This document shows, one piece after another, positions 7,599 to 40,474 of a stretch of 64,000 nucleotides of DNA. The DNA is taken from positions 54,418 to 118,417 of IMG/VR virus record IMGVR_UViG_3300009784_000001; one strand, written 5' to 3'. Under the pieces are notes generated by a model. It saw only the letters and a list, made by a program, of their open reading frames with translations. It was not told the origin of the DNA and made no database searches. Position 1 is the stretch's first letter. Each line of letters opens with the position of its first letter. The position numbers and the translations under genes are program-made. The DNA comes from a virus (lineage: Duplodnaviria > Heunggongvirae > Uroviricota > Caudoviricetes).

Positions 7599-7634
7599 AT
7601 TACCTAATTTTTATTTGTTTATTTTGTTAAGCAA

Positions 7635-7695
7635 TACAAAGATACAAAATCTTTTCCAATCCACAAAAGAAATAAAGTTAATAAAAGTTAAAAAT
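7635..7695 (-). promoter_or_regulatory. early promoter (same class)
   Basis: Plus strand shows tacaaagata at 7635-7644 and aagttaataaaagttaaaaa at 7676-7695. Confidence 0.6.
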
Positions 7696-7767
7696 TTTTC
7701 ATATTATATAATATTAAAATTTATTCAAAATTTATTATAGATATTTTAACATTCTTAAGAACTACAT

Positions 7768-7808
7768 AAAAAAACCGACCAAAAATAAACATTTCGATCG
7801 GCGGTTTT
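7768..7808 (-). terminator. putative intrinsic terminator
   Basis: On the minus-strand RNA, CCGAUC...GGUCGG forms a 6-bp stem followed by UUUUUUU (the plus-strand A-run at 7768-7775). It closes the ORF-free region. Confidence 0.45.
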
Positions 7809-8312
7809 ATCCTTTTATGATATAACTTTGCCTTCTACTACCTCATTATACTGGCAACAAAATTATAGTGCGACTCATAAAAGTTTCTTGGAATAAAACA
7901 GGAGGTTTATTATCTTTTCTTATCCCTCAAATTGCAGACGTTTCTTTATGATCCCGCCAAAAACACTTCACTTAATTTGCAATTACCTAATCAAATGATG
8001 GTTGTCAATTTCTTTTAATTGTTATGGATATTAATCATTATCATATGTGCCAAACTTTCAATACCCAATTAAAATTTCCCTTAATCTTCAACCAAATTCA
8101 AACACTGCCATCAGGTAGGCAACTAACAACCTTTGAACTTACAAGGCGTTCCAACTCTTTTATTTCACGACTTGGACTAATCGTGCCTTATCCAAATTAA
8201 TAACCCATTTTGTAAAACCCTAAAAACAACCAATGGAAATTTCAAATTATGGACTAACCACTTGGAGTTTTTGTTAAAATAACTTTGAATAAATTTTTTG
8301 CGCTGGTGTAAA
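7776..8312 (-). ncRNA. candidate non-coding RNA of about 530 nt, class unknown
   Basis: No ORF longer than 14 codons on the minus strand. A canonical early promoter (8320-8376) points into the region and a terminator sits at its far end. GC content is visibly higher than in the flanks, and there are local hairpins such as CACGAUUAGUCCAAGUCGUG. Confidence 0.35.
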
Positions 8313-8319
8313 ATCGTAA

Positions 8320-8376
8320 TACAAAGATATAATTTTATTTTTATATAACCAAACCTTTTATGTTAAAAATTCTTAC
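8320..8376 (-). promoter_or_regulatory. early-type promoter driving the ORF-free region
   Basis: Plus strand shows tacaaagata at 8320-8329 and tatgttaaaaattcttac at 8359-8376. The downstream side has no ORF. Confidence 0.55.
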
Positions 8377-8582
8377 TCCATTACCCATATAACCCCTTTT
8401 TCACTCCCTCTAAAAACATTTGAACAGGCAATAGGTTTATTTTCTATCTTATCAGAAAAATAACATCCACTTGCATCTGCTCTCAAAAAACAACAACCTT
8501 TACAAATGTTGCTTTCTGTTTCTATTGCTTTAACTTTTCCTGCAATAAACATTGTATTCTCATCAATTTTAATTACTTCCAT
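8373..8582 (-). CDS. small Cys-rich protein (69 aa)
   Basis: Track ORF carrying CKGCC and CS motifs. Confidence 0.45.
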   Translation of the reverse strand: MEVIKIDENTMFIAGKVKAIETESNICKGCCFLRADASGCYFSDKIENKPIACSNVFRGSEKGVIWVME

Positions 8583-11497: not shown

Positions 11498-11656
11498 CTT
11501 GTTTTCTTGTTTAATTATATACAAAGATACAAAAAATAATTTATATAATAATAAAAAACCATCTTAATAAAAATTAAAAAATGTTAAAATTTTCCCCCTG
11601 AATATATCTTAAATTATATAATCAATTAATATACATATTTTAACTTTATTAATAAG

Positions 11657-13630: not shown

Positions 13631-13904
13631 AACTTAATTATTTATAGAACAAAGATACAAATTTATTTTCATGTAACAACAAAGAATAAAGTTAATAATT
13701 ATTAAAATATGTTAATTTTTTTGGGATTATTGAAATATTAAAATAACATTATAAATCAATAAAACTATTTTAACTTTGTTAATTTTTTAACAAAATGATA
13801 GTAAGAAAAAAAAATTCCCATAGGAAAAAAATTATAATATGATTTTTACCTATTAAAATGATAATATTAAATATTAAAGATATTTTAACATTTCATTTAA
13901 TAAT

Positions 13905-16572: not shown

Positions 16573-16771
16573 TTTATTTACTTATTAATTATTTTATACA
16601 ACAAAGATACAAAAAATATTTTATATAACAATAAAGAATTATGTTAATAATTGTTAAAAAACTATGCAATTTAGTAATCTTAAAAAATATAATAAATGAT
16701 ATAGATATTTTAACTTTTCTAAAAAATGTTAAAAAAAGAGAACTTTCTCGTTCCCTCTTTTCAATATAAAT

Positions 16772-18849: not shown

Positions 18850-19080
18850 ATAATTTTATCTTATTTAATTTATATAATAATACAAAGATAAACATTTTAT
18901 TCCAGATAATCATACATAATGATGTTAATAATTGTTAAAATTTATACATAATATAATCTTAAAAAATATCTTATTTATTAAATATATTTTAACATTTAAC
19001 AATTGTATATAAAAAAAAATAGCTTTCAATACTTTCACTCTGTCCAGCATTAAAAACTATATTTGATTTTATTTAATATG

Positions 19081-20997: not shown

Positions 20998-21129
20998 AAA
21001 GATAATGTTTTATTTTGATATAACAACTAAAAATAATGTTAAAAAAATATAATTTTTTATCAATTAATTGTTAAAATATCTTTATTCAAAATTAAATATT
21101 TTTAACAATTCATTAACATTATTTAACTT

Positions 21130-38571: not shown

Positions 38572-39534
38572 TTACTTGTTTAATGGAATTAAATTCAACA
38601 TATATTTTTTTCCTTCTTCACTGTTCATCAGTGGAGCATCATCAATAATCCATTTATTTCTAATAATATCTTCTTTTTGATAATCAAAAAATGTTTCTAT
38701 CAATGGTGTCTTAATAACTGTAGAATATGGTAATAACACTGAATACTGATTATTTATAGTTTGAAAATCTGTATGAATTTCTTTGCCATTAACAAATTTC
38801 TTTTTTGTAATTAATCTACCTCTTTTTTGACCAATAGGATAATCATTCCAATTGATATTTTTCTCTTGAAATAGTAATTCTTGCATTTGATCAGTATTTT
38901 TCTTATGTAATTCTTTTGGTGAAAAATAAGTTTGAGCAGCCATTGAAATGCTATTTCTTACACAATCTAACTGGCGAAATAAGAACCAGGAAAAAGCATC
39001 ATTTTGTGTGGGTACAACAAATGCCCTACAATCAAACTCAGCTAACTTGAAATCTCTGATTTGATCATAAATTGTTAAATCCTTATCAACTTCAACACCA
39101 TCTATTGTTTGTTTATATTGTTCTCCAAACTCATCACAAAATCCTTCACATTTTTGATTTTCCAATTTTCTAACCATTCTTAATTGATTGAATTTGGAAG
39201 CTGCCATTGAAGCTGCAAGAGAGTTAATCTTACATAATCTGTAATCAAACCATGCTTGTTTTTCTCTTGTATCATAATCACAAACAAAAATACTTATTTC
39301 ATCAGATTGAACAAATGCAAATAATGCTCCTGAAATATTGGAACATAGATATTTTGCAGTTTCATTCATATCTTCGATGAAACCTGTATCAAATGGTTTT
39401 TCAAGTTTATTCTTAAATTGATGGGAAAAGGAACGACCATCTAACACCATAATAACATATGATTTTACTGGTAGTTTATAATCACATAAACCTCTATAGT
39501 ATAACATTCTATCTTCTAATTTATTCCATTTCAT
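38572..39534 (-). CDS. Thg1-like protein (tRNA-His guanylyltransferase / 3'-5' nucleotidyltransferase family)
   Basis: LPVKSYVIMVLDGRSFSHQF...EKPFD...SDEISIFV aligns with yeast Thg1 LPQCYIVVRIDGKKFHEF...AKPNDE...ESDEYSFIL. There is a C-terminal extension of about 80 aa. Confidence 0.8.
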   Translation of the reverse strand: MKWNKLEDRMLYYRGLCDYKLPVKSYVIMVLDGRSFSHQFKNKLEKPFDTGFIEDMNETAKYLCSNISGALFAFVQSDEISIFVCDYDTREKQAWFDYRLCKINSLAASMAASKFNQLRMVRKLENQKCEGFCDEFGEQYKQTIDGVEVDKDLTIYDQIRDFKLAEFDCRAFVVPTQNDAFSWFLFRQLDCVRNSISMAAQTYFSPKELHKKNTDQMQELLFQEKNINWNDYPIGQKRGRLITKKKFVNGKEIHTDFQTINNQYSVLLPYSTVIKTPLIETFFDYQKEDIIRNKWIIDDAPLMNSEEGKKYMLNLIPLNK

Positions 39535-40474
39535 ATTTTGTCCAACCTCTATACTTTTTAATCTTATTATTTTTTAATTTTAACAAATAATCATATCCCA
39601 AATCATTTTCCTTTGCAAAGCCCTTCAAATCCAAAATGTGATGAATTTTTTCATCAGGAGATTTTAAATCACATTCACCTCTATTTTTTTTTACATATAT
39701 ACCATTCTTTTTACAATAGTACAAAACTAATCCACTATCCAAATTTAATTTTAAACCTATATTATTTACATTTTCACCATCCTTGTGCATTTCTAATATA
39801 GTTGGGATTAAATATTTATGATCTTTGAAACCATTTTTTTCAATATTTTTATTTTTATATGGATATACAACCCATTTATGCTTATAATCTTCAAAAGGAC
39901 ATTTGCCAATATCTTTTAAAAATTTTTCAACATTTCTTCTTGGAATATTAATAATAGGTTTTTTTTCATTAAATCCTATTTTTGCTTCATATTCTTTTAA
40001 TTGTTTAATTAATATGTTTTCTATCTCTTCACAACAAAAAGAATTTGTTGATAATTTTATATTATTTGTTACACATTCATTTTCTCTATTATCTATTGAA
40101 CCATCTCCTAGATACCATATCAAATTACATAATTTATCAAGTTTTAAATCTAAGGGAACCATTTTTTTATCATTAGGATACCATTTTTCTTTCAATTCAT
40201 ACCAGAATAAATTTGATTTTGCTGATAATCTAAATTCTTTATAAATTTTATTTGTTCTTTTATCATAATATTCATAACTTTGAGGATGATTATCACACCA
40301 TACATATTCTGGTAATAATTTTTTGATAAACATTATAAATTCTAAAGAAGAACTGTTTAAGAAAAAATTAAAACTTTTTTTATTAATTCCTCCATCACTT
40401 AATAATAAACCATTTATAACTGACATTTCTTTTTCATTAAAAGAAAATTTTTCATATTTCCATTTTTTATTCAT
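39521..40474 (-). CDS. LAGLIDADG homing endonuclease (double-motif, free-standing)
   Basis: Motif 1 INGLLLSDGGI and motif 2 LIWYLGDGSI sit about 100 aa apart. The ORF overlaps the Thg1-like start by 14 nt. Confidence 0.7.
   Translation of the reverse strand: MNKKWKYEKFSFNEKEMSVINGLLLSDGGINKKSFNFFLNSSSLEFIMFIKKLLPEYVWCDNHPQSYEYYDKRTNKIYKEFRLSAKSNLFWYELKEKWYPNDKKMVPLDLKLDKLCNLIWYLGDGSIDNRENECVTNNIKLSTNSFCCEEIENILIKQLKEYEAKIGFNEKKPIINIPRRNVEKFLKDIGKCPFEDYKHKWVVYPYKNKNIEKNGFKDHKYLIPTILEMHKDGENVNNIGLKLNLDSGLVLYYCKKNGIYVKKNRGECDLKSPDEKIHHILDLKGFAKENDLGYDYLLKLKNNKIKKYRGWTKYEME

Follow-up and report, generated by a model that had tools for sequence, protein, structure and literature searches.

Transcription unit and coding capacity

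The window analysed here is a stretch of 64,000 nucleotides (nt) from the viral IMG/VR record IMGVR_UViG_3300009784_000001. On its minus strand lies a gap without a protein gene, between a gene of 69 amino acids (aa) and one of 120 aa, and this gap probably encodes a structured non-coding RNA of about 550 nt (Table 1). A first-pass annotation had proposed such an RNA from an early promoter pointing into a gene-free stretch and a closing hairpin with a U-run. Both signals were recovered here, with UP, -33 and -7 elements at the 5' end and an 11-bp stem followed by U7 at the 3' end.

The promoter belongs to a class that is over-represented in the window. A regular expression for a strict architecture (TTTTTAAC(N5)TTATTAAC, TTTG, about 20 nt, TAtcTTTG) finds 13 near-identical early promoters on the minus strand, each ahead of a short cassette of small genes without assigned function. 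Past the -7 box of 12 of them, an open reading frame (ORF) of at least 30 aa begins with ATG after 22-38 nt, which agrees with the earlier remark that the other early promoters are closely followed by an ATG. The sole exception is the promoter of the present locus, where the next such ORF is 723 nt away. With the usual spacing of Bacteroidota promoters, transcription is predicted to start at about 8317-8313. The hairpin with U7 is the better of two terminator-like sites found by a terminator scan of 3.5 kb. The downstream 120-aa gene has a promoter of its own, so the RNA is not the leader of that gene, and the stretch between promoter and terminator is most likely a separate early transcription unit.

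On the minus strand the longest ORF reaches 10 codons if it must begin with ATG, and 22 if any start codon is allowed. Every frame of this strand contains many TAA stops, which exclude stop-codon recoding in which TAG or TGA is read as sense. On the plus strand there are ORFs of 27-28 codons with alternative starts and one ATG ORF of 58 codons antisense to the RNA. The earlier statement that no ORF exceeds 14 codons therefore holds for the minus strand and fails for the plus strand. The 58-codon ORF was considered as a gene and rejected: 19% of shuffled sequences reach at least 58 codons, and indels break it in the related sequence LSPZ01000080.1 (L080). Comparison with L080 gave no conserved ORF on either strand of the region, including the small conserved peptide gene that had been named as an alternative content. 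With a GC content of 0.322, where the window averages 0.262, the region ranks in the top 4.3% of 537-nt windows and is more GC-rich than its surroundings, as had been noted. No internal repeats, iterons or tandem repeats of note were found in it.

Table 1. Features of the RNA locus, of the window and of related loci. Positions are those of the window unless a locus is named.
Feature	Positions	Strand	Remarks
Upstream 69-aa gene	ends 8373	-	sequence reading
Early-type promoter	8322-8369	-	UP element TTTTTAAC 8369-8362; -33 TTTG 8353-8350; -7 box TATCTTTG (TAtcTTTG) 8329-8322
Predicted non-coding RNA, long form, ~550 nt	7767-8316	-	promoter and terminator bracketing, no minus-strand ORF, conservation in L080
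Pseudoknot 5' strand (AA)AACUCCAA	8262-8271	-	pairs with 8223-8214
P1 hairpin GUGG-UUAGU-CCAU	8249-8261	-	family signature; preceded by CCAA; within motif CCAAGTGGTTAGTCCA 8265-8250
Hairpin H	8191-8245	-	loop holds pseudoknot 3' strand UUUUAGGGUU(UU) 8223-8214
Domain 2 hairpin AUAAGGC...GCCUUGU	8141-8191	-	second UUAGUCCAAGUCGUG motif inside
Domain 3 hairpin AAGUUCAAAG...UUGCC-loop-GGCAG...UUUGAAUUU	8094-8140	-	RNAalifold pairs 178-188/214-224, 196-200/209-213
Central variable region, several helices	7927-8093	-	including 7998-7990/7976-7968 and 7958-7955/7940-7937
M3 hairpin	7890-7926	-	9-bp stem; 19-nt near-invariant loop AAAGAUAAUAAACCUCCUG 7917-7899
3' domain	7812-7883	-	closing helix CUUUUAUGA/UCAUAAAAG; inner helix 7867-7856/7832-7821
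Intrinsic-terminator-like hairpin	7767-7804	-	11-bp stem 7802-7774, U7 7773-7767
58-codon ATG ORF antisense to the RNA	8024-8200	+	rejected as a gene
Recurrent intergenic motif AATGTTAAAATATCTATAATA	7733-7753	-	3' of the terminator; probably outside the RNA
Other copies of AATGTTAAAATATCTWTAATA	11627-11647, 13872-13892, 16697-16717, 18976-18996	-
Other copy of AATGTTAAAATATCTWTAATA	21067-21087	+
Next early promoter, -7 box	7637-7644	-	drives 120-aa gene 7598-7236
Ends of the 13 strict-copy -7 boxes	4740, 7637, 8322, 9981, 10440, 12727, 16201, 17321, 19790, 27560, 29073, 34151, 49886	-
PARP catalytic domain protein, 408 aa	29518-30744	-	E = 3.5e-24
Thg1-like (tRNA-His guanylyltransferase family) protein adjoining free-standing LAGLIDADG homing endonuclease	38572-39534 and 39521-40474	-
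Ribonucleotide reductase large subunit, 1330 aa	52865-56857	-	interrupted by LAGLIDADG / Hom_end domain, intein-like
Thymidylate synthase, 559 aa	60254-61933	-	family match in two stretches
Element in L031, L039, L064, L076 (and L073, same contig as L031)	L031 9270-9780; L039 7531-7805		27-240 nt after tmRNA, directly before tRNA-Cys, among suppressor tRNAs; human-gut phage contigs of ~170 kb where the size is known
Element in L058, L074			directly before tRNA-Cys; no tmRNA detected
Element in L063, L077			~30 nt after tRNA-Pro, before tRNA-Cys; no tmRNA detected, no suppressor tRNA
Element in L069/L084, L129			abuts the 5' end of a tRNA
Element in L127/L128/L130			occupies the gap between two tRNA-Ser genes
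Element in L054/L065			~100 nt upstream of tRNA-Met
Element in L115/L125			~100 nt upstream of tRNA-Tyr
Element in L117, L124/L132			followed by a non-coding run that leads to tRNA arrays 1.5-2 kb downstream
Element in L118/L135			before YqeY-like gene; tRNA arrays 1.5-2 kb downstream
Element in L121			before YqeY-like gene; single tRNA in the locus, ~5 kb upstream
Element in L059, L061, L062, L081, L067			before YqeY-family gene; no tRNA in these short loci

Structure shared with a related phage

L080 is a collinear relative with 29.5% GC and homologous genes in the same order, save for an indel of about 4 kb. The longest nucleotide-level match between the two phages is the RNA itself (615 nt, with 74-79% identity over about 600 nt), and the neighbouring genes upstream of it are unrelated. 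RNAalifold on the two sequences gives 144 shared pairs, 21 of them compensatory, compared with 6.2 ± 2.6 compensatory pairs (maximum 16) after shuffling of columns within conservation classes. The consensus energy of -106.4 kcal/mol is far below the -46.7 ± 5.6 kcal/mol of the shuffles. In a strand control the consensus fold reached -93.9 kcal/mol on the promoter strand and -33.9 kcal/mol on the opposite strand. The covariation against related phages that had been suggested as a check is thus present in this pair, and it is also seen in the pseudoknot of the wider family. The stretch is not read as a decayed gene or an inert spacer, because the substitutions are compensatory and strand-specific.

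In domain 2 the RNAalifold pairs 127-133/171-177 and 142-149/161-168 are near-invariant between the two phages, and domain 3 has one double change, from C-G to G.U. The central region contains indels of 15, 4 and 5 nt; there the helix 360-363/378-381 (7958-7955/7940-7937) has three compensatory pairs and the helix 320-328/342-350 has one. The closing helix of the 3' domain (7883-7875/7820-7812) has four compensatory pairs, its L080 counterpart being CUUUGUGAA/UUCACAAAG, and the inner helix has two. The stem of the terminator carries three, with the U-run kept.

Four long forms are known: the target, L080, L026 and L035. They have in common two additions, which in the target are the M3 loop AAAGAYAAYAMACCNNCUG (hairpin 7926-7890) and then CAAGAAAC at 7890-7883. 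L026/L070 (170 kb) and L035/L071 are more distant; what they have in common with the target is the core, a block UCCAAGUCGUG..AAGAGUU, which lies in domain 2 of the target, and the M3 hairpin. Six of the nine pairs of the M3 stem are compensatory across the four long forms, two of them in the L080 comparison alone, and 91.7% of cells are paired against at most 58% when one strand is slid; 0 of 500 shuffles reach the covariation score. Two further observations were made by eye. Where the target has its 3' domain, L026 shows a closing helix of an analogous kind, and ACCNN of the M3 loop can pair with NNGGU of another loop (in the target 7906-7902 with 7844-7840). The two strands covary, with UC/GA in the target where L026 has AA/UU, which is taken as a lead only.

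The core module

The 5' part of the RNA is a module of about 75 nt that recurs throughout the family. Its order is an A-rich linker, the pseudoknot 5' strand AANNCCAA, the P1 hairpin GUGR-UUAGN-YCAY and a variable hairpin H. Hairpin H starts 1-3 nt past P1 and is very variable in sequence and length, with UUWGGNUU in its loop, and the 8 nt before P1 are complementary to this loop. In the target, AACUCCAA (8269-8262) pairs with UUAGGGUU (8223-8216), and the N3-N3' pair (8267 with 8218) is C-G. A constrained fold of the target encloses the loop motif in hairpin H, and the stem of H covaries between the target and L080 (CCAUU/AAUGG and ACUUU/AAAGU). Even with up to three mismatches allowed, the P1 motif of the target has no second copy in the window. 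A covariance model (CM) matches the target at 8199-8277 with 42.2 bits (E = 4e-7). The pentamer UUAGU of the P1 loop (8257-8253) recurs twice in the RNA, in GAUUAGUCCAAGUCGUG and GUUGUUAGUUGCC (8180-8171, 8128-8124), and CCAAG-like motifs recur three times inside it; these recurrences may be repeated recognition sites.

MAFFT aligned hairpin H inconsistently, and two other alignments were used instead, one spliced at anchors and one made with the CM, which gave two tests of the pseudoknot. The first used 18 distinct sequences, with the loop anchored on T[TA][AT]GG and the variable base ignored. The central pair was GC in nine, CG in four, AU in two and UA in two of them, with one exception (L067). 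For this exception a better partner, CGGAUU, lies a few bases on, and it is borne out by four related sequences found later. In this test 98% of cells are paired against at most 57% with the 3' strand slid, and 0 of 500 shuffles reach the covariation score.

The second test used a CM built from eight short forms with nested helices only, so that the pseudoknot was unmodelled, and 28 distinct matches were aligned to it. The pseudoknot helix is paired in 92.8%, with a central pair of GC in 11, CG in five, UA in three and AU in two, and the three failures are visibly misaligned rows. P1 is paired in 100% of the 28 sequences, its fourth pair being GC in 20 and AU in eight and its closing pair GC in 16 and GU in 12. 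Within the family, each pair of the H stem is altered on both sides; the counts for H are biased toward the structure of the model, which the pseudoknot counts are not. The whole structure is paired in 86.3%, against 68.1% in shuffled alignments (0 of 500 as high) and at most 48% when slid. U.G and G.U pairs are common, with U.G in 16-18 sequences at one position of the pseudoknot. On the complementary strand they would read as A.C mismatches, so the substitutions fit one strand only. A search for P1 with a different fourth base pair gave chance coding matches only.

Family members and short forms

Self-comparison of the genome showed that a second gap (L001 17557-18049, just outside the window) shares the 16-mer CCAAGTGRTTAGTYCA and the sequence after the terminator. 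A scan of IMG/VR with this 16-mer gave mostly chance coding matches and five non-coding ones, on contigs of 27.6-176 kb, four of them of 148-176 kb. One of these five, the long form L026, aligns to 420 nt of the target (nhmmer, E = 3.9e-5). The exact 18-mer CCAAGTGGTTAGTCCAYA occurs in 31 metagenome stretches, L080 among them, most of which are non-coding and have the same downstream hairpin. A relaxed pattern combined with the CM gave about 12 further distinct IMG/VR loci, mostly on contigs of 45-385 kb, in which the fifth base of the P1 loop varies. The family thus amounts to about 35 distinct non-coding loci from uncultivated, mostly large phages.

Other searches added no members. A 32-nt core query had no match in 50,697 phage records, and a pattern for the M3 loop found only the known long forms and chance coding matches in IMG/VR. 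Among 185,579 representative bacterial and archaeal genomes (GTDB species representatives) there were three matches, none of them convincing, hence no evidence of prophage copies in the representatives scanned. The neighbouring 120-aa protein has one distant homologue (49% identity) among 5.8 billion sequences, and no similar RNA or DNA was found at its locus.

The second gap contains a short paralogue, region B, at about 17,690-17,900 of L001 (minus strand, about 90-300 nt beyond window position 1). It consists of GUGAACGAAAG, a 22-bp outer stem around linker, core and hairpin H, and then U7; its core has P1 as GUGA/UCAC and a U-A pseudoknot pair. An orthologue in L080 (8109-8180) was found by the CM and lacks the exact seed motif. 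The differences between the two are compensatory: the pseudoknot pair changes from U-A to C-G, P1 from GUGA/UCAC to GUGG/CCAU, and the outer stem from U-A to C-G and from U.G to G.U. The target phage and the L080 phage thus each carry a long and a short form. Short forms measure about 100-250 nt and follow a common plan, with an outer stem and a AACGAAAG or AGAAWGRUAACAC hairpin upstream. Their upstream AGAAAGAUAACAAC motif resembles the M3 loop, which is downstream in the long forms.

Genomic context

In most lineages, transfer RNA (tRNA) genes or a transfer-messenger RNA (tmRNA) gene lie on the same strand, 0-2 kb from the element (Table 1). Suppressor tRNAs with a CTA anticodon occur in the arrays of L031, L039, L064, L076, L058, L074 and L073, and some of the tmRNAs of L031, L039, L064 and L076 also match the permuted tmRNA model. 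In another lineage the element precedes a YqeY-family (GatB-like) gene, in L061 at 47-451 on the minus strand (Pfam PF09424, E = 5.9e-17); here the fold may have been put to cis-regulatory use. No protein family is common to the lineages within ±5 kb of the element. The target and L080 copies are exceptions: each has a promoter and a terminator of its own, and the available sequence contains no tRNA. No tRNA or tmRNA was found in the 64-kb window or in L001. A group I intron is present in L031 at 7859-8062.

The sequence 3' of the terminator belongs to a recurrent intergenic motif (AATGTTAAAATATCTWTAATA), of which the window has six copies against 0.35 expected. The copies sit after terminators and upstream of early promoters, and the reverse complement of the motif equals the UP element ATATTTTAAC of the promoters. 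The motif is also found 3' of the short paralogue and of both L080 copies. Since it recurs across the genome, it is read as a DNA-level motif of promoter regions; a regulator may bind there, or the motif may represent a second class of promoter. The motif is complementary to the 5' leader of the RNA, and RNAalifold proposes an outer stem between the two with one compensatory pair. This stem is probably not RNA structure because its 3' partner recurs six times.

Gene content of the phage

The proteins flanking the RNA are encoded on a metagenome contig of 359,962 bp in ENA (ERZ27257292:k141_1583612). The window has a GC content of 26% and dozens of small genes on the same strand behind promoters of the TAnnTTTG kind, which we take to be of Bacteroidota type. 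The source is read as a jumbo phage of about 360 kb with a Bacteroidota-like host, the host being read from the promoter type alone. No close relative of the window was found among 50,697 deposited phage genomes (INPHARED, at near and distant sensitivity).

Phage hallmarks in the window are a ribonucleotide reductase, a thymidylate synthase, a tail-fibre protein with an S74 chaperone, a Thg1-like enzyme and a Dam methylase. The reductase is interrupted in an intein-like manner, and the two-stretch family match of the thymidylate synthase suggests a second insertion there. The Thg1-like protein is an enzyme of the tRNA-repair type, in a phage that also bears an RNA of the tRNA-island type. A PARP catalytic domain is unusual in a phage, and the 408-aa protein that has it may ADP-ribosylate targets in the host or in its defences.

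Discussion

The gene-free stretch is probably a gene for a structured non-coding RNA, present here in its long form of about 550 nt. Its family, the CCAAG-pseudoknot RNA of large phages, would be new and has no entry in Rfam 15. This reading agrees with the structured RNA originally suggested between promoter and terminator, and it draws on the conservation in L080 with 21 compensatory pairs, the strand specificity and the family of about 35 loci. We place the family within a known kind, the large structured phage RNAs of tRNA islands.

Several points weigh against this reading. The promoter and the terminator are known as consensus matches only. The structure of the long form rests mainly on one pairwise comparison, and only four long forms are known. 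RNAalifold keeps compatible pairs only, which makes its raw counts optimistic, and the z of about -10.7 for the consensus energy is generous because the column shuffle does not preserve dinucleotides, although its direction is not in doubt. Folded as a single sequence, the RNA is no better than its shuffles (minimum free energy z = -0.39), so the local stems that had been noted cannot be demonstrated in this way; they become significant once relatives are compared. The members of the family were seeded by exact patterns, and the invariance of P1 is therefore partly an effect of ascertainment. The association with tRNAs is a trait of the family that the target copy does not have, frequent but not defining.

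One alternative is that the stretch is no RNA gene but a decayed protein gene, a spacer or a DNA element such as an origin, an array of protein-binding sites or a mobile cassette. The flanks do carry recurrent DNA motifs (UP elements and the six copies of the post-terminator motif), the 5' leader is complementary to the latter, and the single-sequence folding energy is unremarkable. However, the compensatory substitutions with their many G.U pairs fit one strand and the consensus collapses on the other, there is no conserved frame and there are no internal iterons or tandem repeats, and no other DNA is as well conserved between the two syntenic phages. The pseudoknot covariation and the shuffle and strand controls largely refute this explanation, and we give it hardly any weight. 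It is also quite improbable that the RNA is a cis-regulatory leader, that is, a riboswitch or attenuator of the downstream gene with the hairpin and U-run as its expression platform. A hairpin and U-run before a gene is the usual layout of terminator-type riboswitches, and in L059, L061, L062, L081, L067, L118 and L121 the short form ends in this way about 30 nt upstream of the YqeY-family gene. At the target locus, on the other hand, a complete early promoter (-7 box 7644-7637) separates the terminator (7802-7767) from the next gene. Across lineages the downstream genes are unrelated and many copies precede tRNAs rather than mRNAs, and about 550 nt with more than 12 helices far exceeds known leaders.

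The remaining alternatives accept an RNA and differ in its nature. One takes the core of about 75 nt for a small ribozyme, self-cleaving or RNA-processing, that would trim polycistronic tRNA or non-coding RNA transcripts of the phage, with the long form carrying it at the 5' end; we consider this improbable. The core is compact and pseudoknotted, and its invariant unpaired nucleotides are the UUAG loop, the CA after P1, a C.A mismatch and the A-rich linker; many invariant unpaired nucleotides are typical of small ribozymes. Against a ribozyme, the strand order of ribozymes like that of hepatitis delta virus (HDV) is P1-P2-P3-P3'-P1'-P4-P2', unlike the order of pseudoknot (PK) and hairpin strands here, PK5'-hairpin-H5'-PK3'-H3'. 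In favour of one, some copies adjoin tRNAs, either directly upstream (L069/L084, L129) or between two tRNA-Ser genes (L127/L130), and HDV-like theta ribozymes beside phage tRNAs provide a precedent (PMC10879173). Even so, the distance to the nearest tRNA ranges from 5 nt to more than 2 kb, the window contains no tRNA, no cleavage site can be named, and no Rfam ribozyme family matches even at E <= 10. It is very doubtful that the RNA is a divergent member of ROOL or GOLLD undetected by the Rfam models. In favour of this, the RNA family is likewise phage-encoded, often near tRNA islands and without an associated protein, and the length of about 550 nt with conserved and variable parts fits (PMC12286853). 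Neither family is matched by Rfam 15 in the window (at the gathering threshold and at E <= 10) or in 30 related loci, and no searchable paper contains the string of the core motif.

For the new RNA family itself a function can be proposed tentatively. The RNA would accumulate as a stable trans-acting molecule, and a conserved host component, or an RNA of translation or tRNA maturation, would recognise its invariant hairpin and pseudoknot; alternatively the RNA might self-assemble as ROOL and GOLLD do. In either case it could serve phage translation or counter a host defence directed at tRNAs. The step from structure to host recognition or self-assembly in the service of translation or anti-defence is at best a possibility, well short of an even chance. 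P1 and the M3 loop are near-invariant across phages from contigs of very different GC and gene content, and together with the absence of a co-occurring phage protein this points to a partner that is universal in the host, or to the RNA itself. The repeated placement in clusters of tRNA and tmRNA genes, and once beside YqeY, points to translation, tRNA maturation or a defence against immunity that targets tRNAs. We would tentatively rank a binding or decoy role above processing by a ribozyme and above self-assembly of the ROOL and GOLLD type. A bolder and rather unlikely idea sees the core as the active centre of functional RNAs of a new class, either a self-cleaving or tRNA-processing ribozyme or a binder that reprograms a universal host component of translation or tRNA maturation, and the long form as an elaborated, independently expressed, early and possibly self-assembling version of it.

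Large structured RNAs without a protein partner are rare, and ROOL and GOLLD form RNA-only assemblies, homo-oligomeric nanocages. If the proposal is true, a third unrelated family in the same niche would give an independent handle on why phages need such RNAs. The invariant core of about 75 nt would be a small and defined target for probing, cleavage assays and pull-downs. The family would also annotate a blank gap of 0.8 kb here and similar gaps in dozens of metagenomic phage genomes.

Comparison with known RNAs

At the gathering threshold, a search of the window and 30 related loci against Rfam 15 gave only tRNA, tmRNA and one group I intron, all of them elsewhere than in the element. At E <= 10, region 7600-8500 and the short forms gave only junk far below gathering scores. 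The Rfam check proposed with the original suggestion thus gives no known family, so that the RNA is not ROOL, GOLLD, 6S, tmRNA, RNase P or a small ribozyme as these are currently modelled. The target has no match to the ROOL model at either setting, and neither the target nor the 30 related loci match the GOLLD model, including its conserved 3' domain. No cloverleaf or tRNA-like domain was found in the target by ARAGORN or Rfam. The 6S models, which describe a long irregular hairpin with a central bubble like an open promoter, give no Rfam match either, and in place of such a single hairpin the consensus fold has several domains and a 5' pseudoknot.

The commonest pseudoknot, AAGUCC with GGCUU after an A-rich linker, resembles the P4 helix (CR-I/CR-V) of RNase P as in the M1 RNA of E. 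coli, and the tRNA context would suit. We treat the resemblance as a coincidence: the central pair covaries freely, the strands are about 40 nt apart compared with about 290, and no RNase P model matches. To our knowledge no comparable free variation exists at the corresponding position of P4 in RNase P. Look-alikes in 23S rRNA and in the D-loop of tRNA were dropped too, given the free covariation of the pair concerned and the lack of any matching model.

The stable RNAs C and D of phage T4 (species 1 and 2) have no assigned function and are co-located and co-transcribed with the phage tRNAs. The short forms described here sit between tRNAs likewise. The difference is that the 32-nt core query matched none of the 50,697 phage records, and that the target has its own promoter and terminator and no tRNA near it.

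The searchable literature on RNAs of tRNA islands yields only ROOL, GOLLD and the theta ribozymes. An unnamed entry for the present family is possible in a 2023 catalogue of 10,006 candidate phage RNAs (PMC10690425). Theta ribozymes are HDV-like and pseudoknotted and occur in phage tRNA clusters, including those of phages with suppressor tRNAs (PMC10879173). The gut-phage members of the present family are also found among suppressor tRNAs and tmRNA. The two differ in the strand order of the pseudoknot, and the elements here are not regularly within ±5 nt of tRNA ends. The target lacks the features of the HDV type: its strand order is another, no tRNA adjoins it and Rfam gives no match to a model of this type.

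The first suggestion that the RNA might be of the ROOL or GOLLD kind stands as the best analogy, in size, phage origin and association with tRNA islands; by the Rfam models the RNA is a member of neither. GOLLD RNAs are phage-associated, lie beside or interleaved with tRNA genes, and join a conserved domain to a variable domain or linker (PMC12286853). The present family similarly joins an invariant core with lineage-specific insertions. GOLLD is much larger, at least 800 nt, its motifs are unrelated and its Rfam model does not match. ROOL RNAs are encoded by phages and prophages, often near tRNA islands, measure about 550-650 nt with many helices and pseudoknots, and have no dedicated protein partner and no known function (PMC12286853). 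The target resembles them in its length of about 550 nt, its at least 12 helices with one supported pseudoknot, its presence in a phage and the lack of a shared protein. The difference from ROOL is that the core here is a module of about 75 nt that also stands alone, in the short forms of 100-250 nt.

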